From assembly GCF_017744155.1 (NCBI RefSeq), contig NZ_JAGHQT010000003.1:1-64000 (forward strand): a DNA stretch of 64,000 nt, written 5' to 3'. Positions 19,061 to 38,327 of the stretch are shown here, piece after piece; within the stretch, counting starts at the first letter, position 1; each line of letters begins with the position of its first letter. Below the pieces are notes generated by a model. The model had not been told where the DNA came from, did no database searches, and saw only the letters and a program-made list of their open reading frames with translations. A program made the position numbers and the translations under genes. Source of the stretch: Endozoicomonas sp. G2_1 (GTDB taxonomy: Bacteria; Pseudomonadota; Gammaproteobacteria; Enterobacterales; Alteromonadaceae).

Positions 19061-20230
19061 ATGATTAAAAAAAGTTTATTTAGAAAAATTGTGACAGTAG
19101 CAGAGTACGAGAGAGTACTCGTATTTAAAAATCAAGCCTTAGATAAGGTTCTATCTACAGGTAAGCACAAAGTTTGGGATACTCGCGATGAACTCGACTT
19201 TGTTTATTTTGATATTAACAAACTCTATTTTGCAGAAAAAAATGCAGAGCGTTTATATAAAAATAATGAGCAACTGCGCGAACACATTGGCCATTGGAAA
19301 ATGGCGAGCAACGAAGTGGGTATGCTGTATATCAATGATTTACTGCGAGGGGTTGTTGCGCCAAGCGAGAATTTATACTTGTGGAAAGACGCAGGTGATA
19401 TTCGGGTTGAGCGAGTCTCTATTGATGACAACATCGAACTTGATGAAAAGACCTTGGTTGAAATCAATCGCGCTGGTGCCAATACCGCATCACGGCTAAT
19501 CCGCAGTGAACGCACCGTTGCCATTAAGCCAGTAGCCGATATCAACATTGCCAAAGACCACATTGGTTTACTTTACGTCAATGGGCAATTGTCTAAGCGA
19601 CTAGCGCCGGGTAGCCATGGTTTCTGGCAGTTTAATCACGCGATTGAAGTAAAGTCGTTTGATTGTAGAACGCAAATGCTGGAAATTTCTGGCCAAGAAA
19701 TATTGAGTAAAGACCGCGTTAGTTTGCGAATTAACCTGAGCGCCAGTATTAAAATTCACGATGCAGAGCTTGCTGCGAGTAGTGTCGACAACGCTCAAGA
19801 GTACGTTTATAAAATGCTGCAATTGGCCTTGCGTGAAGCGGTTGGCACTAAGTCGCTTGACGATATTTTGCTCGACAAGCTTTACGTTAACGAAACCGTT
19901 CAAGAGTTAGTGACTGAGCGTTTAACAACTATGGGTATTAGCTTAGTCAGTGTCGGGGTCAAAGACATCATCTTACCGGGTGAAATGAAAGCGATTCTGA
20001 ACCAAGTTGTTGAAGCACAAAAAGCAGCTGAAGCCAACGTGATTAAAAGAAGAGAAGAAACCTCGGCGACTAGAAGTTTACACAACACCGCAAAAGTGAT
20101 GGAGAACAACCCAACACTAATGCGTTTGAAGGAGCTTGAAGCGCTCGAAAAAGTAGCGGGCAAAATTGAGAGCTTAACCGTTTACGGCGGGCTTGAAGGT
20201 TTGATGAATGGCGTGGTCAAAATCGCCTAG
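19061..20230 (+). CDS. SPFH/band-7 (slipin/flotillin-like) domain protein
   Basis: Band-7 core followed by coiled-coil EAQKAAEANVIKRREE; first ORF after tRNA-like array, upstream of rtcB. Confidence 0.6.
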   Translation: MIKKSLFRKIVTVAEYERVLVFKNQALDKVLSTGKHKVWDTRDELDFVYFDINKLYFAEKNAERLYKNNEQLREHIGHWKMASNEVGMLYINDLLRGVVAPSENLYLWKDAGDIRVERVSIDDNIELDEKTLVEINRAGANTASRLIRSERTVAIKPVADINIAKDHIGLLYVNGQLSKRLAPGSHGFWQFNHAIEVKSFDCRTQMLEISGQEILSKDRVSLRINLSASIKIHDAELAASSVDNAQEYVYKMLQLALREAVGTKSLDDILLDKLYVNETVQELVTERLTTMGISLVSVGVKDIILPGEMKAILNQVVEAQKAAEANVIKRREETSATRSLHNTAKVMENNPTLMRLKELEALEKVAGKIESLTVYGGLEGLMNGVVKIA

Positions 20231-20313
20231 TGCACTGCTACTAACGCGCAGTTAACAGAGCGCTAGTTCGCAGTAAGGACTAGCGCCAATCAATAAAGAA
20301 TTAAGGAAAACTT

Positions 20314-21543
20314 ATGTGTAATAAACACTATAACTTGATCGAAAATGAAGGCAAGGTGCCAATTAAGGCGTGGACTAAAGGTGTGCCATTTGAGCAACAA
20401 GCGCAAGATCAGCTAAATAACATTGCCAGTATGTCATTGGTGCATTCACATATTGCGGTAATGCCTGATGTTCACTTGGGAAAAGGTGCGACCATTGGCA
20501 GTGTAATTCCGTCGGTTGATGCCGTTATTCCAGCAGCCGTTGGTGTCGATATTGGTTGCGGTATGGTGGCGACGAAAACTACGTTAACGGCAAGCCAATT
20601 ACCGGATAATTTAGCGGGTATTCGTCACGCTTTTGAAGCGGCTGTGCCGCACGGACGCACAGGTGGAAAACGCGGAGCGCGCGATCGCGGCGCTTGGCAT
20701 AATATTCCAGAGGTAGTTGCTGGCGAGTGGAAAAAACTTGAAGCTCGCTTTGAAAGAATTTGTCAGAAACACCCAGCCATCAGCAAGAGTAACCACGTTA
20801 AACACTTGGGCACTATGGGAACAGGTAATCACTTTTTGGAGCTTTGTTTAGACGAAAACGACGCGGTTTGGATTATGCTGCACTCAGGCAGCCGCGGTGT
20901 TGGCAACCGTATTGGTACTTATTTTATTGAGTTAGCCAAAAAAGAAATGCAGCGTCATCAAATTAATTTGCCAGACGTTGATCTTGCTTACCTCGAAGAG
21001 GGCAGTGAGTACTTTGACGACTATGTTGAAGCGGTTGAATGGGCGCAAGATTTTGCGGCAAAAAATCGTGAAATCATGATGTTTAACGCAATCGCAGCGT
21101 TGAGAAAGCAAATACCAATTGAGTTTTCAACGGCAGAATTGGCAGTTAATTGTCACCATAATTATATTTCACGCGAGCGCCACTTTGGCAAAGATTGCTT
21201 TGTGACCCGTAAAGGAGCGGTGCGCGCAGAAAAAGGTGAAATGGGTATTATTCCAGGTAGTATGGGTGCTCGTTCGTTTATTGTTCGAGGCTTGGGAAAC
21301 CCTGATAGCTTTAACAGTTGTAGCCATGGTGCCGGTCGAGTGATGTCGAGAACCAAGGCGAAAAAGGTTTACACTATTGATGATCAAATTGCCGCAACCG
21401 AGGGCGTTGAGTGTCGTAAAGACGCTGCGGTAATCGACGAAATTCCTCATGCTTACAAGGATATTGACCAAGTTATGGCGGCGCAAAAAGACTTGGTTGA
21501 AGTGGTTTATACCTTAAAGCAAATTGTTTGTGTTAAAGGGTAA
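20314..21543 (+). CDS. rtcB: RNA-splicing ligase RtcB (3'-phosphate/5'-OH RNA ligase)
   Basis: 409 aa; conserved RtcB metal-binding Cys/His pattern (VMPDVHLGKG, GCGM, GTGNHF, HSGSRGVGN, HNY, CSHGAGR). Confidence 0.9.
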   Translation: MCNKHYNLIENEGKVPIKAWTKGVPFEQQAQDQLNNIASMSLVHSHIAVMPDVHLGKGATIGSVIPSVDAVIPAAVGVDIGCGMVATKTTLTASQLPDNLAGIRHAFEAAVPHGRTGGKRGARDRGAWHNIPEVVAGEWKKLEARFERICQKHPAISKSNHVKHLGTMGTGNHFLELCLDENDAVWIMLHSGSRGVGNRIGTYFIELAKKEMQRHQINLPDVDLAYLEEGSEYFDDYVEAVEWAQDFAAKNREIMMFNAIAALRKQIPIEFSTAELAVNCHHNYISRERHFGKDCFVTRKGAVRAEKGEMGIIPGSMGARSFIVRGLGNPDSFNSCSHGAGRVMSRTKAKKVYTIDDQIAATEGVECRKDAAVIDEIPHAYKDIDQVMAAQKDLVEVVYTLKQIVCVKG

Positions 21544-21552
21544 GGAGTACAA

Positions 21553-22593
21553 ATGAAATATATAACCATAGATGGTGCCCAAGGCGAAGGAGGCGGCCAA
21601 GTGCTAAGGACAGCACTGACACTGTCAATTTTAACCAAGCAGCCAATTGAGCTAGTAAATATTCGCGCCAATCGAGCAAAGCCCGGTTTATTGCGCCAGC
21701 ACTATATTTCAGTGATGGCAGCTAAAACAGTGTCAAATGCTGAGGTTGAAGGTGTTGAATTAGGTGCTACTAGCATTCGATTCTCGCCGGGTGAATTAAC
21801 TGGCGGTGATTACCATTTTTCTATTGGTACTGCTGGCAGCACGGTATTGGTTTGCCAAACCATATTACCGGTATTGGCCTTAGCTAATAGCGCTTCCACC
21901 GTTACCTTTGAAGGCGGCACTCACAACGGTATGTCGCCTTCACTTTGCTTTTTACAACACTCATATTTACCGCTGCTTCGCAAAATGGGAGTAGCGTGTC
22001 GAGTATGCATTGAGAAGCTAGGCTTTTATCCCGCTGGTGGTGGCAAATGGCAAATGCTGGTAGAGCCGACCGCTAGTTTACAGCCGATAGATGGTTTAGA
22101 TGCGCGTGCAGCTGACCCAAGTGTTGAACAGCAATGCCAGCTCAAAGCGTTGATAAGTTCTCTGCCCAAGCACATTGGTGACAGAGAAGTAGCAACTGCA
22201 GTAAAAATACTGGCTTGGCAACAAGCACCGCAAGACGTTGAGCTGGTTGAAAGTGCAGGCCCTGGAAACAGTTTTCAGGCGATGGTTTCGACTCACTCTC
22301 ATGCCAGCGTTTTTGAAACGGTTGGCGAACTTGGTGTTTCAGCTGAACGCGTTGCCAAGCGTTGTGCTGGGCGAGTAAAACAGTTTTTGAATGCACAAGC
22401 GACGGTAGAAGAGCACTTAGCCGATCAATTGTTGGTACCTATGGCCTTGGCTGGTTCAGGCAGTTTTACCACGACTAAACCAAGTTTACACACGCTGACC
22501 AATATCGACGTAATTAAACGCTTTTTACCTGTCAGAGTACGCATAGAGCAACAGACTAAACAGCGTTGGCGCATTGATTTAACAACAACTTAA
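21553..22593 (+). CDS. rtcA: RNA 3'-terminal phosphate cyclase RtcA
   Basis: 346 aa; N-terminal DGAQGEGGGQVLRTALTLS motif. Confidence 0.85.
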   Translation: MKYITIDGAQGEGGGQVLRTALTLSILTKQPIELVNIRANRAKPGLLRQHYISVMAAKTVSNAEVEGVELGATSIRFSPGELTGGDYHFSIGTAGSTVLVCQTILPVLALANSASTVTFEGGTHNGMSPSLCFLQHSYLPLLRKMGVACRVCIEKLGFYPAGGGKWQMLVEPTASLQPIDGLDARAADPSVEQQCQLKALISSLPKHIGDREVATAVKILAWQQAPQDVELVESAGPGNSFQAMVSTHSHASVFETVGELGVSAERVAKRCAGRVKQFLNAQATVEEHLADQLLVPMALAGSGSFTTTKPSLHTLTNIDVIKRFLPVRVRIEQQTKQRWRIDLTTT

Positions 22594-22610
22594 TTGATTG
22601 GATAGATAAA

Positions 22611-23414
22611 ATGGTGATGTTAACAGCAGAGCAAGTGATAGCACCTGACGTGTACTCAGAAATAATGCGCCGAATCAAAGCTGCGGAACAAGAGCACAAC
22701 GTAAAGGTGCTTTACGCGGTAGAGTCAGGCAGCCGTGCTTGGGGTTTTGCTAGCCCAAATAGCGATTACGATGTGCGCTTTATTTATGCGCACCCCAAAG
22801 ACTACTATCTAACGATAGACATTGAAGACAAGCGCGATGTAATTGAATACCCAATTGTTGATGAAATCGATATTAATGGTTGGGATATTCGCAAAGCATT
22901 AAAACTGTTTTGGAAATCAAATCCCGCGTTTATTGAGTGGTTACAGTCACCAATTGTTTATCTCGACGATGGCTTTTTCGCGCCAACGGCTCGTGATTTA
23001 ATGCCCAGTGTGGCATCGTCTCACAAAGGTATTTATCACTACTTGCACATGGCGCGCGGTAATTTTCGCGAGTACTTGAAAAAAGATGTGGTGCCGTTGA
23101 AAAAATACTTTTACGTGCTCAGGCCGCTGCTGGCAATAATGTGGCTAGAAAAATATGACAAACCAGCTCCGATAGAGTTTGATGTATTGCGTCAACTGGT
23201 TGCTGACAATGAAGCGTTAGATGAAGCTATTTCTGAATTGGTTGCTCGCAAAAAAGTGAGTTTAGAAAAGGAATATGCGCCAGCGGTGCCGATAATCAAT
23301 CAATTTATTGAATCTGAGCTTAGCCGACATCAAGAAAACCCTCCTAGTGCCGGAGACAGAGATGCCGATTTTGAGTTACTAAATCAGTTGTTTAAAAGGG
23401 TTTTGCTGGATTAG
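22611..23414 (+). CDS. Pol-beta-superfamily nucleotidyltransferase, RNA-ligase-associated (RlaP-like)
   Basis: GS-x-RAWGFASPNSDYDVRF NTase motif (GS…DxD); immediately follows rtcA. Confidence 0.55.
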   Translation: MVMLTAEQVIAPDVYSEIMRRIKAAEQEHNVKVLYAVESGSRAWGFASPNSDYDVRFIYAHPKDYYLTIDIEDKRDVIEYPIVDEIDINGWDIRKALKLFWKSNPAFIEWLQSPIVYLDDGFFAPTARDLMPSVASSHKGIYHYLHMARGNFREYLKKDVVPLKKYFYVLRPLLAIMWLEKYDKPAPIEFDVLRQLVADNEALDEAISELVARKKVSLEKEYAPAVPIINQFIESELSRHQENPPSAGDRDADFELLNQLFKRVLLD

Positions 23415-30758: not shown

Positions 30759-31106
30759 TTACTGTGAGCATGTATTAATCTTCAAACTACCACTGACTGA
30801 TTGAGTAATAAGCTCAACTAGTTCTGGATCCATGTACTGGTACTCGTCGGGAATATCGAGTACCTGAATATTTGTATGATGTAACAGTCGAGTAAATTGC
30901 GCCTTTAATCGACATTTGTGTTTATTTTCCATCACAAAAATAATATCTGCCCATTGTATGTCGCTGGCATTTACCGTTCGTTTTGCTTTTGGGCTAGTAC
31001 CTGCTGAGCGTACGGCAAGAGCAGGGTAGTTTTTCCAGACCTGCTCTGCTGTTGGGCTGCGCCATTTATTGCGACTACAAATAAATAAAACGCGTTGTTT
31101 ACTCAT
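30759..31106 (-). CDS. Low-molecular-weight phosphatase-like protein (LMW-PTP/ArsC fold)
   Basis: P-loop CSRNKWRS (Cx5R-S) and downstream DIPD(EY) general-acid-like motif. Confidence 0.5.
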   Translation of the reverse strand: MSKQRVLFICSRNKWRSPTAEQVWKNYPALAVRSAGTSPKAKRTVNASDIQWADIIFVMENKHKCRLKAQFTRLLHHTNIQVLDIPDEYQYMDPELVELITQSVSGSLKINTCSQ

Positions 31107-31686
31107 TACCAGTATTTTTCTCCATGTCTAAGACTATGCTATGGCAAGGTAGGTTACAGCCATCGTCAAATTCAGCGGCAGCATGAACACCTGTTTCAGC
31201 GATTTGTTGTGCCGTTGCTCCAGACTCATAAAGAGCATGCATAGCACCCAATGCAAAACGTCTGCCTGAGCCGAGCGCCCAAAACTGCTCATACTGATGT
31301 ACTTCGCGATAACTACCAAATTGAAAAATGCCAGAGGAATTAATGATCAAGCCGTCGAGTTGGTTTGACTCAACCGGCTGGTCACTGTCTTCATTGGTTT
31401 CAATAAAATATTCATTTTTCAACTTGTCTTGAATCGCCAATAAGGTTTCGAATATTTGCCACCTCGTTTTTAGGTTAAATAGTTTCGGCTCCGTTTCTAT
31501 TAAGTGCTCGAGGATTTGACTGGTTGCCGACCAGCCAGTCATGCCTATAACACTGTCTTGTACCGGAAAAAGTTTTTTGCGATCGTTAACGTATTTTGCG
31601 TGTACTTTTAACGAGCCAAAATTTAATTGCGTGTCGGCAGAGATACATACTTTGCCATCTTTTATTGCTGCTGTAATAACAGTCAT
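31099..31686 (-). CDS. HslV-like Ntn-hydrolase (proteasome beta-type) without HslU
   Basis: N-terminal Thr after Met (MTVITAAIKDGKVCISADTQ vs HslV TTIVSVRRNGHVVIAGDGQ); GSG motif; 8-bp overlap with downstream phosphatase gene. Confidence 0.5.
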   Translation of the reverse strand: MTVITAAIKDGKVCISADTQLNFGSLKVHAKYVNDRKKLFPVQDSVIGMTGWSATSQILEHLIETEPKLFNLKTRWQIFETLLAIQDKLKNEYFIETNEDSDQPVESNQLDGLIINSSGIFQFGSYREVHQYEQFWALGSGRRFALGAMHALYESGATAQQIAETGVHAAAEFDDGCNLPCHSIVLDMEKNTGNE

Positions 31687-31846
31687 TATATTCTCCTTGA
31701 GTAGCTGTATTATTGTGGTTAGTAGCTACTCTTTTGTTGATTTCTAATGTAGTTTTTCATTTTGCTCTCCACTAGAATTGAATCTAGAAGAGAGCACCTT
31801 TTAGTTGTGAAATTAACATTGTTACTCTCCTTAAATTGGTTATGTA

Positions 31847-32473
31847 CTATTGACTTAACACGAACTTTTCACCTTTAAATATTTTTACTGGATTACCTCG
31901 TTGCAATTGCCAATGTTGTTGCCAGCGCGCTTGTTCTTGTTGACTCATTTTTTGCTGCTGAGCCATTTGCAGTTTTTGAAACAGCAACGCTTTTGCTAAA
32001 CGCTTGTTGGCGTGTTGGCTGCGTTCACTTTCAACGCGCACTGAAACTCCTGAACTAGTGTGAGTGGCTCGCACAGCCGAGTCTGTTGTGTTGACATGTT
32101 GCCCGCCAGCACCAGATGATCGACAAGTTTGGTAAACAATCTCGCGATCAAATGTCATTTCGTCTACTTGGTATACTTGGCCGCTAAAAAACCAGTTTTT
32201 GCGTTTGTGTTGTGGGCGGTATTTACTTTGGCAAACCCAAAGCATTGCTCCTTGCCACGTTTGTGCAAACGCTAAAGCTGTTGCTTTTTGATTGCTTTCT
32301 ATCTGCAGTAAGGCCGACTTAAAACCTAACTTGTTTTCACCCTGACTCGCGTCAATTACCGTGCAATTTAGATCGCTCGTTTTACATTGCTTTTCAATGG
32401 CTTTAACGGCGAGTGCAACCGCTTGGCAGCACTCAACTGGCCCTTGGCCGGCGGAAAATTGAAGTAAAATCAT
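31847..32473 (-). CDS. prfH: Peptide chain release factor homolog PrfH
   Basis: GGQ motif [17 protein letters not shown]; N-terminus [16 protein letters not shown] like E. coli PrfH; 4-bp overlap with upstream rtcB2. Confidence 0.8.
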
Positions 32474-33657
32474 TTGCTACAACTCCCGTTAGTTTTAAAT
32501 GTGAGTACCGGGCGCAACCTCGCGATAATCTCGATTAAACCTGCCGCTGCCATATCTAAAATAATACTTTCACATTTTTTGTAGGCTTGCGGCGCCTCGT
32601 CGTATAACAATTCTTTGTTGCCACAAACGACTCGGCTACCCAATGCTGTTCGGTATAAGTCTTCGCGTTTGTACTTGTGACTTAATCGGCTTTGGCAGTC
32701 GCCGCGCTTCCACTTTCGGCCCGCACCATGAGCAAGAGAACACAAGTTGTGGTTTAGCTCCTGCTGCTGGTTTAATAGCGGTTTCACCAAATAGCTGTAA
32801 TCACCGCGTGAACCCGGAATCACAACATAACCAGCGTCGCTAGGCGTCGCCCCTTTGCGGTGAAGCCAGCCTTTAACACCATCGATTGTTTTGGGTGAAA
32901 CGAGGTTGTGGTTAACATCAAGTACGCAATCACCTTGTGCTTTTATCGCTGCTAAAAAGCGCTTGGCTATAAGTGAACGGTTAAGCTCAGCCCAGCGCAC
33001 CGCATGGTTGTGCTCAGCAATATACTGATTAAATGGCTCACTATTTGTCGCCAAACCATCATGGTTAAATTCACTAATGTGCTTAACCAAAATCGACTGC
33101 CCTAAACCGCGAGATCCCGAGTGCACTAAAAGCTGCAACTGCTTCTTGTTTATGCCCAGTTGATCTAATTGGCTTTGGTCGTAAACTTGGTCAATCGCCT
33201 GAAACTCTGCAAAGTGGTTACCACCACCTATAGTGCCAAGCGCATGATCATAATTGCTGTTAGTAATATTTTTCTCGCGTTTGCCTTGAGCAATGTCATC
33301 AGCCCAGTTGTCGTCAAGTGGCTGTTCAATCGTTTTGAATTGTTTAGCCATTTTGTCTAGATTGACTTTGGCAACTTTGCTCGATGTTTGCCACAACGCC
33401 ATGCCACAACCAATGTCATTACCGACTAAGGCCGGATAAATTTTACTGCGCGTGAAAAATGCCGCACCAATCGGATAACCTCGGCCCGGATGCAAATCAG
33501 GCATACCCGCGACGCGTTCCATACCGGTTAATTCGGCTGTTTTAATTAATTGTTGTATTGCTAGCCCTTCAATCCACGTATTTTTTGAGGCAATAAGGCT
33601 AACTTTGTCAGTAATTTGTTGGACGGATTTGTCCATAACACCAATTCCTTTGTTCAT
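32470..33657 (-). CDS. rtcB2: RtcB-family RNA ligase paralog (RtcB2) paired with PrfH
   Basis: 395 aa with RtcB metal-site motifs (HPGRGYP, GCGM, GGGNHF, HSGSRG, HNH, AHGAGR). Confidence 0.8.
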
Positions 33658-34039
33658 TTGAAAATTTGGTTTTTTAAAACGAATACGGTTTGGCAGATCT
33701 TTTTAGCGTTGAACAAAAACCATAGGCAAACAAACAGGCTCTAGCGACGAAGTGCTAAAGTGAGTTGCTTTAGTTCAGCTTAAAAAGAATTACAGAATGT
33801 TGGCGTAGCTTGTTGCTAGCTAAAAAGATCTGCAAAGGGTAATAATGTATTTTTCATGTTTTTTACTCCTCTACAGTTAGTTGAAAAATGATAGTTGCTC
33901 ACTAAATAAGCGAGCGCATAATAATCAGTTTAATTTGTGAAAGCAAACTTAAAATTAATAAATTGCTAAAATTTCCTATATTTCGACTCATTTTCACCGC
34001 AAAAAAAGTGAACCATATTGGCATTCATTGCGGTGTCTG

Positions 34040-34681
34040 TTACATACACAGATTATTCTGAATTTCTTTTGAGACCGAAAACACTCGCTCTTTCGGCGTC
34101 AGTAATTTTGTTAAATCACCAGCTTCGACAAATTTTCTTTGCTCGGCAACAAAGGGTGAAATATCTTCAATGCGAAAAATGCCATCACCTTTAAACGGCG
34201 CTAAATAGTTGTTTCTCAAGCCTAGCTGAATTGCCTTGCGGTCGAGCTTTTCACCATAGGGGTTATGATCGGGATCCCACTGAAGGCGGACATCAGTAGT
34301 GGCTATTTTTTCTTTCCACTCTTGTTGTGCTAAGCCAAATACGTTAGTTGACGGAAAAGCATTTTGTAGTAAATATTCGAAATATTCAGGTTTGAGAAAT
34401 ATGGCTAATGTGGTCTCTTGACCTTCTTTGGTGCCCCAGCCTGATCGATACATCATCCAGAGAAAGTTGGGTTTAATCCAGCTCATTCTCGAATAACTGA
34501 AGTCACCGCCAAAGTACTGTTGTTTTGCTGCAAAGTTGCCAATACTAGGGCGATAAGCTTGGTAAACTATTACGTAATCTTGGCAACTTTGAGCCATGAT
34601 ATGTTTGCCACTATCCGGCCAAAATGCTTGCTGTTGGTAGTATGGCTCAACCTCAAGCCACGACTCTTGATCAATTTTCAA
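34040..34681 (-). CDS. DUF4291-like protein
   Basis: Family recalled from memory; co-oriented downstream of kptA and NADAR. Confidence 0.35.
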   Translation of the reverse strand: MKIDQESWLEVEPYYQQQAFWPDSGKHIMAQSCQDYVIVYQAYRPSIGNFAAKQQYFGGDFSYSRMSWIKPNFLWMMYRSGWGTKEGQETTLAIFLKPEYFEYLLQNAFPSTNVFGLAQQEWKEKIATTDVRLQWDPDHNPYGEKLDRKAIQLGLRNNYLAPFKGDGIFRIEDISPFVAEQRKFVEAGDLTKLLTPKERVFSVSKEIQNNLCM

Positions 34682-34713
34682 TGTATTATTCCTTTGTTGT
34701 GTTTCTGTTTTGG

Positions 34714-35280
34714 TTAGCTAATGTGCCAGTGAATAAATTCAGTTGGTACATTGTCAACGAGCCAAACATTGTTTGCTGAGCGATAAAAGATAAAACCTTG
34801 CTCATGCATTTTTTTGCTATCGATTTCGAGCACTTTAAGTTTTCCATATCGACTGCCAACCGACGCCGCCACCGTTTTTGATTCGGTAAGGTGAACATGG
34901 TGTCTGTTTCCTTTACTGAGTCCTTGTTCCTGAATACTTGCGCAGAAGCGTTCAGCGGTTCCGTGTAACAGTTTCTCAGGTGGTATAAGTGGTGTTAATG
35001 CCAGATCAACATCGATAGAGTGACCTTGGTTCGCTCTGATTTTTGTTCTGTTTGAGTTTATTGCAAAACGCTGTTTGTCATTCGTTTCAGCGACTAAATC
35101 AACAAGTTCAGCTGTCAGTGGATGTTCAGTAGTTTTATCGACAAGCTCATCGATTGAGGCCCAGCCACAGCTGTCTAGCTTTAAACCAATAGCATCGGGT
35201 TTGTGTCGTAAAACAAAGCTCAAATATTTGGATATTGCGGTGAGCTGCTTTTCTGTGATGCCTACTATTGGGTTAGTCAT
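34714..35280 (-). CDS. kptA: RNA 2'-phosphotransferase KptA/Tpt1
   Basis: LSFVLRHKPDAIGLKLDSCGWASIDELV … HGT … RHHVHL motifs. Confidence 0.8.
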   Translation of the reverse strand: MTNPIVGITEKQLTAISKYLSFVLRHKPDAIGLKLDSCGWASIDELVDKTTEHPLTAELVDLVAETNDKQRFAINSNRTKIRANQGHSIDVDLALTPLIPPEKLLHGTAERFCASIQEQGLSKGNRHHVHLTESKTVAASVGSRYGKLKVLEIDSKKMHEQGFIFYRSANNVWLVDNVPTEFIHWHIS

Positions 35281-35836
35281 TGATCAGTCGCTCTCTTACT
35301 TCCATTAAGGCATAGCCCAACAAATTCAAACCACGCCAGTGTTCAGGTTGCTCTATTTTCGGATTGTCTTGGGCCATGCCTATTCCCCATATCGAATCAA
35401 CAGGGCTCGCCTCAACGATTACTCTGTCATTGGTGTTAATAAGAAAATTGGCAAGCTCATTATGAGCCCTGAATTTAGCCAAATTGGCGTTTATCACAAT
35501 ATCAAACCTATGTTGTTGCCAAACTTGGTCATTGAAGTTGGCGACAGTTCTACCTATGGCTTTTGCTTCGCCGGGCGATTGGGCGGCAAGCACTTTGTTC
35601 GCTGATTTTTTATCATCGAATAACATGGCTTTAGCAAACATCATATAGTGCTCTGCAGTTTGAAAGTGGCAGTTATCGCTGGTAAAAGGAGCGTGATACC
35701 ACTGACTAAAACAGCTTTTGGTGACAACAGGTGCACTACTAGTCATTTTGCTTTGGTGCCCCCAGAAAAAAAGGTATTTAACCGCAACACCATTTGCAAG
35801 TGCTTGCAGCAATTCTTGATTATTTCTTATATTCAT
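35273..35836 (-). CDS. NADAR (YbiA-like, DUF1768) domain protein
   Basis: FFWGH…FSQWY…AEHYMMFAKA…WGIG…LG.ALMEVR pattern; 8-bp overlap with kptA. Confidence 0.7.
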   Translation of the reverse strand: MNIRNNQELLQALANGVAVKYLFFWGHQSKMTSSAPVVTKSCFSQWYHAPFTSDNCHFQTAEHYMMFAKAMLFDDKKSANKVLAAQSPGEAKAIGRTVANFNDQVWQQHRFDIVINANLAKFRAHNELANFLINTNDRVIVEASPVDSIWGIGMAQDNPKIEQPEHWRGLNLLGYALMEVRERLIND

Positions 35837-35872
35837 TTTGTTTTATCTCTCAATCCTTGCGCGCTAATCGCT

Positions 35873-37468
35873 TTATATTTGTTCATTGATTAGCGCTCTA
35901 ATCTCAGCTAGTGTTGTTTCTTTTATCAATTTGCCATCTTGAAAAACAATGTCGAGTAGACCTTCTTTTTCTTCTTGCTCGCTTACGTTGTCGAACAAGG
36001 TGAGCTCACCGTTGACGTTATCGACCTTTAACAACCCTTTGGCTGATTTTTTCTTGGTGTCAGTTTTGGGATCTTTAAAAATAGCGACTCGTTCGCCATT
36101 TTTTACCACGCTAGTTGCTTTAACCGCTGAGCCATGAGTATCGCGAGTAACGTATTGATAGCTGTACGAACCTATGCCAAGTACAACTTTAGAGGCAAAA
36201 CCTTTGTCCATCAGTCTTTGTAGTATTTGGCGTTGGCGTTCTAGGGTGATAGCGTCACCGTAAATAGCACCAATGTGTTCGTCTAGCAATTTAAAGCCTT
36301 TGTCGGTTGTCGTACCGCCAAAAATGTCCCATAAACACTCTATCAACCCTTTTATTTCACATAGCATTAGTGGCTTGTTGCTTTGCTCATTGCTAGCGAA
36401 GTATTCGCCGCACCAACGGTAAGCTTCGTAGCCACTACTAACTGCGTCGAGCTGAGCTTGTTTTTGGTCTGTGAACAGTTCACTGTATTCGGATACTGGT
36501 GATAATTTATATCCGGTTAGTATTTTGACGGGATCGCCTGAATCAGGACGAATCACCAAAGTACCATCGCGAGTCAGTATTTCATTTTTAAGTTGTGGTA
36601 AATATTCGGTCACTAGGGTCCAAAAGTCCCAAGTATCAGAAACCACACTTAAAATGCCGGTTGGTGACTGCTCTCGCATCAAGTATTTAAAAAACTCAAT
36701 TTCACCTTCTAAAATCCATGAACAAGTCACTGAGTGCTCGGTGGCATCAACTGAACAGCCAACTAACTCTTGGTCAACATTAGCGCCATAGTATTTCTCA
36801 GCGAATAATACCGCGGGAATAGTGTCGGTACCGACTAGGCCAGAGGCTAAGTGCCCAAAACCACTCATCGCAGCTGCTTGCTTGCCAAACATCCCCCGAA
36901 AACTGAAGTCATGACCTTGAAAGGGGACAAATTCCATCGGTAATCCTGTTTTTTCAGCGAACTCTTTAAATACCTTGAAATAAGCGACAGAGGTGGTTGC
37001 GCTAGTTTGGATTGGCCAATTTTCACAACTTAAAACCGTTTCGATCATGTTGGTTAGCCACTGAAAACCCGTTTTGGTATTCACTACGGTAATTGGCGGT
37101 ACTGAATAAGGTACAAGAGTACCTTCAGGCAGTGCCTTAATTTTCAGTGGTAGATATCCCAGATCGTGTAAATCTTCTAAATACTTAACATTTACTGGGT
37201 AACCTAGCATGGCACTCATAATGCGTTTGTGCTCAGCAACGGCAATAGTTTTGTCACGACTAAAAAAGTCTGCCCACTCTTCTTGTAAATAACTTTTGAT
37301 GAAGTACTGCAAACCAACAAACGCCACTTTATCGTTATTTTCAACATTACTTAGCTTGCCGTTGCGTGAGGTAAAGTTAGCATAAACCTCGGTTACGTCA
37401 GGATGGTATGCACGACTGTGAAACTCTTTATAAACATCTTTTTGCATGCTTGCTGCGGTAATTGTCAT
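35873..37468 (-). CDS. nadV: Nicotinamide phosphoribosyltransferase NadV (NAMPT); start ATG at 37468 (track ORF opens at TTG 37489)
   Basis: NAMPT-like FQGHDFSFRGM, GTDT motifs; aaggagag RBS before ATG 37468. Confidence 0.75.
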   Translation of the reverse strand: MTITAASMQKDVYKEFHSRAYHPDVTEVYANFTSRNGKLSNVENNDKVAFVGLQYFIKSYLQEEWADFFSRDKTIAVAEHKRIMSAMLGYPVNVKYLEDLHDLGYLPLKIKALPEGTLVPYSVPPITVVNTKTGFQWLTNMIETVLSCENWPIQTSATTSVAYFKVFKEFAEKTGLPMEFVPFQGHDFSFRGMFGKQAAAMSGFGHLASGLVGTDTIPAVLFAEKYYGANVDQELVGCSVDATEHSVTCSWILEGEIEFFKYLMREQSPTGILSVVSDTWDFWTLVTEYLPQLKNEILTRDGTLVIRPDSGDPVKILTGYKLSPVSEYSELFTDQKQAQLDAVSSGYEAYRWCGEYFASNEQSNKPLMLCEIKGLIECLWDIFGGTTTDKGFKLLDEHIGAIYGDAITLERQRQILQRLMDKGFASKVVLGIGSYSYQYVTRDTHGSAVKATSVVKNGERVAIFKDPKTDTKKKSAKGLLKVDNVNGELTLFDNVSEQEEKEGLLDIVFQDGKLIKETTLAEIRALINEQI

Positions 37469-37478
37469 TTTGCTCTCC

Positions 37479-38327
37479 TTACCCTTCAATAATGTTAAGT
37501 GTTACTTTTTGAGTCGTTTGAAACTCGTTGGCTGCTCTAAATGAGTCGGTGGTATATATGTGGTCGATTAAGCCTTCAAATACTTCTAAACCTTGCGAAA
37601 AAATACCGTGGGTAACAAATAGTGATATTTCGTTTGCGCCTTGGGCCTTTAATACTTTGGCTAACTCAATAAAAGTTCTGCCACCGTCACAAATATCGTC
37701 GGCTATGATTAGGTTCTTGCCCGTAACGTTACCAATAATTTCTGTTTTGACGATAGCACCTGTACGCAAGTCTCTTAGTTTCTGCGCCTGTATAACTTCG
37801 CTGCCAAATTGTTCCGCAATTTTTAACGTTTTTTTACTTGCTCCCGCATCAGGTGCAATTAGCGTTAGTTCACCGCTGCGGAGCTTAGTCGTGAGCTCTT
37901 GATTTTTTTTAAGCAACTCTAGTTGAGGGATATTAGTTACTCGGTTTAACAGTGCTGGTGTTACATCGCTGTGAGCATCCCAAATTGTTACTTTGGCAAA
38001 ATTCAGGCTATTGATTATGTTTGCCATAACTGCAGCGCTTAATGCTTCACCCGTGACACAAACACGATCTTGTCGAGCATATGGAAAATAGGGCGCGATT
38101 AATTCAATAGGAACGCTGTCATTGAATAGTCTGTTTAGTGCATCAACGGCCATCATGAGTCGAACAATTTTGCTCGAGTTGGTTAAGCGTTCAATAATTT
38201 CTATTTTTTTGCAGTTCGCCAAATCTTCGAGAGCAAAGCGAATGTGCTCTTCACCACCTGAAAAACTAAAGCTCTCATAGTTAACAATTGTTTTTTTACC
38301 TGCAGAGTTGTGACTAAATATTTTCAT
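37479..38327 (-). CDS. prs: Ribose-phosphate pyrophosphokinase (PRPP synthetase), NadV-associated type
   Basis: PRPP-binding loop NLIIADDICDGGRT; upstream of nadV in same operon. Confidence 0.75.
   Translation of the reverse strand: MKIFSHNSAGKKTIVNYESFSFSGGEEHIRFALEDLANCKKIEIIERLTNSSKIVRLMMAVDALNRLFNDSVPIELIAPYFPYARQDRVCVTGEALSAAVMANIINSLNFAKVTIWDAHSDVTPALLNRVTNIPQLELLKKNQELTTKLRSGELTLIAPDAGASKKTLKIAEQFGSEVIQAQKLRDLRTGAIVKTEIIGNVTGKNLIIADDICDGGRTFIELAKVLKAQGANEISLFVTHGIFSQGLEVFEGLIDHIYTTDSFRAANEFQTTQKVTLNIIEG

Follow-up and report, generated by a model that had tools for sequence, protein, structure and literature searches.

A conserved leader containing a short, probably translated reading frame was found directly upstream of the rtcB2-prfH gene pair in a 64,000-nucleotide (nt) stretch of DNA from Endozoicomonas sp. 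G2_1 (contig NZ_JAGHQT010000003.1; hereafter, the window). The gene pair and its leader are on the minus strand, and all coordinates are window positions. By homology with the Escherichia coli proteins, PrfH would free the peptide from ribosomes with a cut 16S decoding centre, and RtcB2 would re-ligate the 16S rRNA. According to comparative sequence analysis, what lies upstream of the pair is a genuine regulatory leader, both specific and conserved, of the PA5471.1 kind, which is known from Pseudomonas aeruginosa. We consider it probable that the rtcB2-prfH operon is under its own sigma-70-type promoter and that the leader of about 275 nt is a sensor of ribosome occupancy that induces ribosome repair. 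The features concerned are as follows, in the direction of transcription (SD, Shine-Dalgarno sequence; ORF, open reading frame; uORF, the short upstream ORF of the leader; P0, P1, and P2, RNA pairings).

33941-33946, minus strand: predicted -35 element TTGCTT; the aligned block TTGCtTT is kept in most of 81 upstream regions
33918-33923, minus strand: predicted -10 element TATTAT, after a 17-nt spacer; conserved TgaTTAnnATgcgC block
33867-33876, minus strand: 5' arm of P0, CUGUAGAGGA; overlaps the uORF SD GAGGAG and has 33839-33830 as its partner
33816-33857, minus strand: uORF, 13 sense codons plus TAG, MKNTLLPFADLFS; stop codon at 33818-33816
33830-33839, minus strand: 3' arm of P0, CCCUUUGCAG (uORF codons 7-10), inside a 12-nt stretch, TACCCTTTGCAG, that is identical in the P. 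aeruginosa leader
33819-33833, minus strand: 5' arm of P1, GCAGAUCUUUUUAGC (uORF codons 9-13); shares GCAG with P0
33693-33707, minus strand: 3' arm of P1, GCUAAAAAGAUCUGC; perfect 15-nt complement of 33833-33819
33641-33693, minus strand: P2, CCAAA...(spacer)...AAGGAAUUGG, a hairpin that embeds the rtcB2 SD AAGGA (33650-33646)
32470-33636, minus strand: rtcB2, PrfH-associated RNA ligase, 388 amino acids from the conserved start; the ORF runs up to ATG 33657
31847-32473, minus strand: prfH, 208 amino acids, GGQ motif at SGAGGQHVN; release-factor homologue without domain 1

Conservation and specificity of the leader

Related loci were collected by a genome scan, in which the best 80 of 303 matches were kept; all of them were from marine Gammaproteobacteria, and the closest relative was Colwellia psychrerythraea with 78% protein identity. 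When these loci were compared using blastn and nhmmer, a core of about 60 nt was 85-92% identical across genera, whereas their RtcB2 proteins were only 63-78% identical. A strong SD and, after it, a short ORF make up the core. In the window, the SD GAGGAG (33871-33866) is followed after 8 nt by ATG 33857, which is 221 nt from the rtcB2 ATG. The uORF was observed in nearly all of the 80 loci and had exactly 13 sense codons in 65 of them. A distal conserved block, GACCTGCCAATACGTWTTWCGTTTTAAATCCT, follows after a variable spacer of 37-139 nt, and then AAAGGAATTGGTAYT-ATG, which comprises the rtcB2 SD and start codon.

An earlier note, made from the window alone, had described this region as an AT-rich leader with no ORF that may hold a promoter or a regulatory RNA. 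The base composition agreed with this description, since the GC content was 0.33-0.36 between the DUF4291 stop codon (34040) and rtcB2 and 0.42-0.50 in the flanks. No ORF of at least 60 amino acids was present on the coding strand of this gap, and one ORF of 40 amino acids (33902-34024) is probably spurious; however, the 13-codon ORF at 33857-33816 had been overlooked. The guess of a promoter or regulatory RNA was borne out by the conserved promoter and structured leader described here. It was right in kind as to the regulatory RNA, but it missed the leader-peptide ORF with its alternative pairings and the correspondence to PA5471.1.

Subsequently, the specificity of the leader was examined using a covariance model, R1, of the 5' module with P0. 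R1 was trained on 69 marine leaders, without the window, E. coli, P. aeruginosa, or four loci that were held out. In the window, R1 gave a match at 33799-33884 (minus strand) with 72.9 bits and an E-value of 6e-17, which was the sole match in the 64 kb. Both E. coli leaders were matched at about 29-30 bits (29.8), and the four held-out loci were also found. A search of the 80 loci (1.5 Mb, both strands) yielded exactly 80 matches, one per locus, each on the same strand as rtcB2 and directly upstream of it. No Rfam family for the leader was detected, either over the whole window at gathering thresholds or over 31500-34300 at permissive thresholds.

Alternative RNA pairings in the leader

Three pairings were recognized. 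In P0, the SD region, CUGUAAAGGA, pairs with UCCUUUGCAG within the uORF, and the segment GCAG is common to P0 and P1. P1 is formed by GCAGGUC:GACCUGC in the relatives and by GCAGAUC:GAUCUGC in the window, where a G-to-A change is offset by a C-to-U change in the other arm; the 156-nt domain that it encloses folds at z = -4.16. In P2, CCAAU...UCCU pairs with AGGAAUUGG, burying the rtcB2 SD, and the rtcB2 SD and AUG were predicted to be only about 29% unpaired. P1 and P2 are adjacent, with one C in common.

The pairings were quantified as the proportion of cells forming standard pairs in an alignment of 71 sequences (A1). In P0, 95.6% of the cells were paired over 10 bp, A-to-G changes keeping G-U pairs, and in P1 the proportion was 99%. 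In P2, the part P2a (CCAAU:AUUGG) was paired in 93-94% of the cells and showed the compensatory variants CCUA:UAGG and CCCA:UGGG, and the part P2b (UCCU:AGGA) was paired in 80%. When the 3' partner was slid by 1-3 columns, the paired cells of the whole structure decreased from 92-93% to 58% or less, a control that is partly circular because the structure was derived from the very sequences tested. Double (compensatory) changes were observed in 10 cells in 5 pairs, a number reached by none of 500 shuffles.

Folding of the naked RNA strongly favored P0, with a median pair probability of 0.95 versus 0.005 for P1, and P0 exceeded P1 in 65 of 68 leaders. When the uORF SD was blocked in constrained folding, P1 joined the minimum free energy (MFE) structure in E. 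coli, P. aeruginosa, and the window.

Two other ideas on the RNA were dropped. The distal arm was considered as a mimic of the 16S 3' end (h45/anti-SD), and the likeness was limited to the 6-mer ACCUGC. A four-segment alternation of AGCU-type repeats in the P1 interior was seen in some clades only; with an interior of 37-139 nt, it falls outside the conserved core.

Promoter of the leader

The putative promoter listed above was detected by comparative alignment only, its -35 element being below the stringency of a generic promoter scan. In the alignment upstream of the SD, the counterparts of the -35 element were TTGCAA in E. coli and TTGCGC in P. aeruginosa. At its stringency, the generic promoter/terminator scan detected no promoter on the minus strand, nor did it yield a convincing terminator. 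Moreover, a by-eye search for a sigma-54 (RtcR-type) promoter was made, and the spacing does not fit.

A GC-rich discriminator, GCGCTCG (33917-33911, minus strand), follows the -10 element, and GCGC[TC]CG is kept at this place in 81 loci, even in AT-rich genomes. In its sequence, this discriminator resembles those of ppGpp/DksA-sensitive promoters. The transcription start is predicted near 33911.

Identity of the rtcB2-prfH pair

Both ORFs were found in the ORF listing at the minus-strand coordinates given in the earlier note, with prfH at 31847-32473 (208 amino acids) and rtcB2 at 32470-33657 (395 amino acids). The 4-bp coupling that it had reported was also seen in the sequence: the prfH start and the rtcB2 stop share ATGA at 32470-32473 (junction AGC AAA TGA / ATG ATT). 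The assignment of the pair to RtcB2-PrfH held as well, since both proteins passed the cut-offs of the family models and gave full-length alignments with the E. coli proteins.

PrfH passed the NCBIfam equivalog TIGR03072 (peptide chain release factor H) with 259.5 bits against a cut-off of 166.65. The earlier note had considered that the GGQ protein might align with RF2 or ArfB; however, the PrfH alignment was far better. The scores were 101 bits for the RF2 model (cut-off 370) and 33 bits for ArfB, and the cut-offs of RF1, RF2, and ArfB were all far above. The top solved structure was E. coli PrfH (PDB 7sa4 chain 8, 7sa4_8) with an E-value of 3e-55, as against 1e-16 for RF2 chains. Residues 1-205 aligned with 1-202 of the 204 residues of 7sa4_8, and only positions 119-310 of the RF2 profile were covered, so domain 1 of class-I release factors is absent. 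The protein is 46% identical over its full length to PrfH of E. coli strain ECO21, which has an intact operon (locus L086). It is of the short E. coli type, in contrast to the Capnocytophaga subfamily (9mor, 231 amino acids), which has a C-terminal tail. E. coli PrfH releases peptides specifically from ribosomes with 16S rRNA cut at A1493 (PMC9304027); by homology, PrfH here, with its 46% identity and tail-less architecture, may act likewise on A1493-cleaved ribosomes. In the related loci, prfH adjoins rtcB2 in 79 of 80.

RtcB2 scored 560 bits with NF007153 (cut-off 407), 539 bits with TIGR03073 'release_rtcB' (cut-off 271.8), and 250 bits with Pfam RtcB. It aligned over its full length with RtcB2 of strain ECO21 (54% identity, E-value 1e-149). 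The earlier note had been cautious about the signature residues of RtcB2; in this member of the PrfH-linked family, the catalytic histidine and the RtcB metal/GTP motifs are in place: LAHGAGRKW lies on E. coli LAHGAGRKW with the catalytic histidine H294, whose H294N mutant was used in E. coli RtcB2 (PMC9304027), and HRKGATP is also kept. With the canonical RtcB1 encoded at 20314-21543 in the window, RtcB2 shares only about 27% identity. By homology, RtcB2 here would ligate cleaved 16S rRNA in the 30S subunit.

The start of rtcB2 at 33657 was not upheld. The conserved start is ATG 33636: an AAGGA SD precedes it by 9 nt, the match to the NCBIfam model sets in only at residue 8, and the equivalent MG/DK position is where RtcB2 of E. 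coli and of all relatives begins. As judged by these alignments, rtcB2 probably starts at 33636, and the untranslated stretch is therefore 33637-34039.

Taken together, these findings place the rtcB2-prfH pair here in a known family, as an ordinary member that is readily annotated. By homology, the pair may protect this organism against toxins of the colicin E3 type.

Proposed mechanism and alternative explanations

For the leader as a ribosome-occupancy sensor, the gene identities, the conservation of promoter and leader, and the pairing potential with its exclusivity are directly supported; we infer which way the switch works and at which step it acts on expression. The 3' half of the uORF, with the core CCUUUGCAG, would act as a toggle that pairs either backward with its own SD region (P0) or forward with the distal arm (P1, then P2). 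In a scheme modelled on PA5471.1, healthy ribosomes would open P0, complete the uORF, and depart, upon which the toggle would form P1, the repressing state. P1 would then lead to premature termination, possibly Rho-assisted, and/or to weak initiation at rtcB2. A slow, drug-bound, or rRNA-damaged ribosome dwelling on the uORF would cover the toggle, so that P1 would not form and rtcB2-prfH would be expressed. In the marine loci including the window, in E. coli, and in P. aeruginosa alike, 11-13 nt separate the end of the GCAG toggle from the uORF stop; judging from the size of a ribosome footprint, a ribosome located anywhere from about codon 4 to the stop would therefore cover it. We give an even chance to termination control, intrinsic or Rho-dependent, as the output step. 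C exceeds G in 70 of the 71 leader interiors and G exceeds C in the coding sequence, which is compatible with a Rho loading site.

Several observations weigh against this reading. The P. aeruginosa leader was matched only weakly by the marine-built R1 (13.8 bits, E-value 0.007, targeted search of 701 nt), and the near-invariance of the core leaves only modest covariation. The P1 of the window is unusually long (15 bp); it was predicted to form alongside a shortened P0, which may bias the toggle. No canonical intrinsic terminator was found after P1, either on the minus strand of the window or among the marine relatives; the median count of U in the 12 nt past the arm was 5, and one weak terminator-like hairpin of 7 bp lies within the P1 interior. 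In the published model of the P. aeruginosa leader, segments 3:4 are said to form an intrinsic terminator. In an erm-type footprint test with 76 leaders, a ribosome on the uORF did not make the rtcB2 SD more accessible (median of 0.29 with and without it), and enforcing P1 raised the accessibility slightly (0.38 versus 0.29), that is, in the opposite direction. Furthermore, the relief of transcription attenuation in P. aeruginosa is itself a proposed mechanism awaiting confirmation (PMC12057347).

A purely translational attenuation of the erm/cat type is unlikely, though not remote. In that case, transcription would always run on through the leader, and stalling of a ribosome on the uORF would free the rtcB2 SD from P2. 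The rtcB2 SD and start are in the conserved hairpin P2 with its compensatory variants, and the leader has no canonical terminator. One review terms the P. aeruginosa mechanism 'translational attenuation' (PMC3884212), and PNPase affects armZ translation (PMC12057347). Against these stands the footprint test above, in which covering the uORF did not raise the predicted SD accessibility. In addition, P1 and P2 are adjacent rather than alternative, with only the one C in common. In P. aeruginosa, deletion of nt 1-226 with the SD hairpin kept resulted in high expression, and the mRNA increases on induction (PMC13041342).

It is improbable that the small ORF encodes a functional peptide, either an arrest peptide or a small protein, and that the peptide rather than the RNA is conserved. 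In the marine clade, synonymous variation does occur at Leu11 (CTT/CTA/CTG) and Arg13 (CGA/CGC/CGT), and the ORF length is strongly kept. However, codons 8-10 (TTT GCA GGT) are nearly invariant with almost no synonymous change, which argues for constraint at the RNA level. The frame over the CUUUGCAG core gives L-C-R in E. coli and P. aeruginosa but F-A-G in the marine loci, and the remainder of the peptides is unrelated. What is conserved is therefore the RNA and its being translated, not the peptide. The window peptide itself is idiosyncratic, with G10D and R13S in an intact leader. Moreover, the substitutions Q3K and F4L do not induce in P. aeruginosa (PMC13041342).

We likewise give little credit to the leader being the site of a factor acting in trans (autoregulation by RtcB2/PrfH, a small RNA, or a riboswitch-like ligand) with an incidental uORF. 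The nearly invariant core of 14 nt exceeds the need of simple pairing, and the P. aeruginosa leader responds to SuhB, PNPase, and Cca; but these effects are attributed to changed ribosome stalling, no Rfam family was matched, and the strong SD, the ATG, the fixed ORF length, and the stop 11-13 nt past GCAG indicate that translation is integral. Finally, a plain promoter with an unstructured AT-rich 5' untranslated region is hardly credible: short ORFs and weak hairpins are common by chance in AT-rich intergenic DNA, and the generic scan gave no minus-strand promoter, but R1 matched once in each of the 80 loci and nowhere else and found the held-out window and E. coli, the fold of the P1 domain and the compensatory change in the window's P1 stand against chance, and the protein identity of 63-78% rules out recent horizontal copies of one sequence.

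Genomic neighbourhood

The neighbouring proteins of the window were searched against the 80 related loci by tblastn, with the following counts.

Low-molecular-weight-phosphatase-like gene (115 amino acids) directly after prfH: 39 of 80 loci
Rnl ligase and HD-Pnk near rtcB2: 19 of 80 loci
Canonical rtcB1 operon genes (RtcB1, RtcA, RlaP) within 10 kb: 14-16 of 80 loci
RtcR within 10 kb of rtcB2: 8 of 80 loci
Ntn/proteasome-like gene near rtcB2: 0 of 80 loci
DUF4291 near rtcB2: 0 of 80 loci

The co-location with other RNA-repair genes, which the earlier note had singled out, is thus real and recurrent in the related loci, but not obligatory. The RtcR-regulated operon of the window comprises RtcR, SPFH, RtcB1, RtcA, and RlaP, with rtcR at 16815-18413 (minus strand) and SPFH-rtcB1-rtcA-rlaP at 19061-23414 (plus strand). 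Between them, at 18668-18882 (plus strand), are three tandem tRNA-like genes. ARAGORN reported them as Ser-aga, an element with a 2-nt 'cc' anticodon, and Thr-agt, and Rfam recognized two as tRNA.

Downstream of prfH, the phosphatase-like gene (30759-31106, minus strand) encodes a protein of 115 amino acids with the CX5R loop FICSRNKWRS; its database matches were weak. It is a frequent third member of the cluster. A gene for an Ntn-hydrolase/proteasome-beta-like protein of 195 amino acids (31099-31686, minus strand) lies between prfH and the phosphatase-like gene and overlaps the latter by 8 bp. The spacer at the 3' side of prfH (31687-31846, minus strand) has two strong hairpins, one of 13 bp (GCUCUCUUCUAGA.../...UCUAGUGGAGAGC) and one of 8 bp (GAGUAGCU/AGCUACUC), with z = -4.0, and two mini-ORFs of 11 and 13 codons with SD. 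Rfam searches with this spacer gave sub-threshold matches only.

Directly upstream of the leader, 34040-37489 (minus strand) carries a nicotinate/nicotinamide phosphoribosyltransferase-like gene (NAMPT), NADAR, KptA/Tpt1 (RNA 2'-phosphotransferase), and DUF4291. NAMPT-NADAR also precede rtcB2 in a Marinomonas locus (L004) and, with KptA, in Pseudoalteromonas denitrificans (L018). Just past the DUF4291 stop, a hairpin, CACCGCA...(25-nt loop)...UGCGGUG, with no U-tract was observed at 33995-34035 (minus strand); when the intergenic region was folded as a whole, both the MFE structure and the centroid included it.

Comparison with known systems

In P. aeruginosa, PA5471 (armZ) encodes an RtcB-family protein (cluster PRK09588), PA5470 is prfH, and control is exerted by the 13-amino-acid leader peptide PA5471.1 about 250 bp upstream. 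All classes of translation inhibitor, as well as suhB and cca mutations, induce armZ-PA5470 via ribosome stalling on the leader (PMC3516279, PMC12057347, PMC13041342, bioRxiv 10.1101/2024.11.08.622684). We obtained the P. aeruginosa leader from the primers in PMC13041342 and a P. aeruginosa-like metagenome contig. It reads GCAAAGGAGGTTACATCG-ATG ATT CAG TTC TCT ACC CTT TGC AGG CTG CGC CTG GCC TAA ... GGTCTGCC ... GGATTGGATT-ATGGGCAAC.

The two leaders share their layout, in which a 13-codon ORF with a strong SD precedes an RtcB2-family gene (by 254 nt; 221 nt in the window) followed by prfH. The core AAAGGAG...ATG...TACCCTTTGCAG is common to both, its 12-mer being identical and in the same place in the ORF. 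The distal arm, (G)GUCUGCC/GAUCUGCC, is also common (GGUCUGCC in P. aeruginosa), as is the start region before the ligase gene, GGAWTTGG-N3-4-ATGG, which is GGAUUGG-AUU-AUGGGCAA before armZ. Furthermore, the promoter block is conserved between the two. P0 of P. aeruginosa is GCAAAGG:CCUUUGC, and the 3' arm of its P1 is GGUCUGC. With the weak R1 match, homology of the two leaders is no more than possible on statistical grounds, although such positional identities would be hard to put down to chance. The P. aeruginosa leader differs in its peptide, in the reading frame over the core, in being GC-rich, and in its interior. ArmZ has also gained an anti-repressor role versus MexZ, and there is no sign of such a role at the window locus. 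Induction by stalling is known for the P. aeruginosa operon and is a prediction for that of the window.

The RtcB2-PrfH module of E. coli ATCC 25922, which acts on damage by colicin E3 and CdiA-CT, resembles that of the window in its ATGA-type coupling, tail-less PrfH, and leader architecture. The E. coli leader has ACTGTAAGGAGG (ACTGCAAGGAGG in K-12), a uORF of 15 codons, GCAGAC paired with GTCTGC, and then CATTTCCTGATTTTTATT. Its P0 is CUGUAAGGAG:CUCUUUGCAG in the intact strain ECO21 and has CUGCAAGGAG in K-12. In its P2, CCATTTCC pairs with GGAATGG just before ATGGGCAAA (CCAUUUCC:GGAAUGG as RNA). Its uORF is in another frame than the 13 codons of the window, and the peptides are MTNPLSMTLCRPFQD in E. 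coli and MIQFSTLCRLRLA in P. aeruginosa. With GUCUGC as the 3' arm, P1 of E. coli forms a compact hairpin, and a U-rich run comes after it as in a terminator, unlike in the window. In E. coli K-12, ykfJ, the rtcB2 remnant, was reported to be inducible by 4-azaleucine (PMC3516279). Compared with ECO21 (L086, 2340-2395), K-12 (L081, 3340-3480) has about 125 nt of additional sequence inserted after P1 and ahead of the rtcB2 remnant; this insertion is missing from intact-operon strains. It is probably a repeated element, because part of the K-12 query recurs at a median of 6 places per E. coli genome.

The Pseudomonas literature treats the leader as part of MexXY control, and a 2025 review describes it as apparently unique (PMC12057347). 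In the accessible literature on E. coli RtcB2-PrfH and on PrfH subfamilies, in which plasmid promoters were used, no mention of a leader, uORF, or native promoter was found, and 'ArmZ' and 'colicin E3' occur together in no paper of the literature searched. That the leader is so widely conserved seems unappreciated, and in this literature the stalling sensor has apparently not yet been tied to ribosome repair. The leader stands before rtcB2 in each of the 80 genomes sampled, as well as in E. coli, which links the ribosome-repair and MexXY-control literatures. On balance, we lean toward the view that the PA5471.1-type leader is an ancestral RNA-level sensor of ribosome health for rtcB2-prfH across Gammaproteobacteria (Escherichia, Pseudomonas, Vibrio, Pseudoalteromonas, Colwellia, Marinomonas, and others) and not a peculiarity of Pseudomonas and MexXY. 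If so, the operon would be induced by the slow or damaged ribosomes that rtcB2-prfH repairs. As the uORF SD is half of the P0 switch, a loss of SD-dependent initiation, such as by cleavage near the 16S 3' end, could also turn the switch on. The leader suggests a built-in stalled-ribosome sensor that induces ribosome repair, and an alignment and a covariance model are now at hand for testing the switch.

Among attenuators, the leader is like the trp-type, ermC/cat, and tnaC/Rho systems in having a short translated leader on which ribosome occupancy would choose between pairings upstream of the regulated gene. Unlike these, it has neither regulatory codon runs nor a conserved arrest peptide, and the leader's own SD is part of the helix P0.

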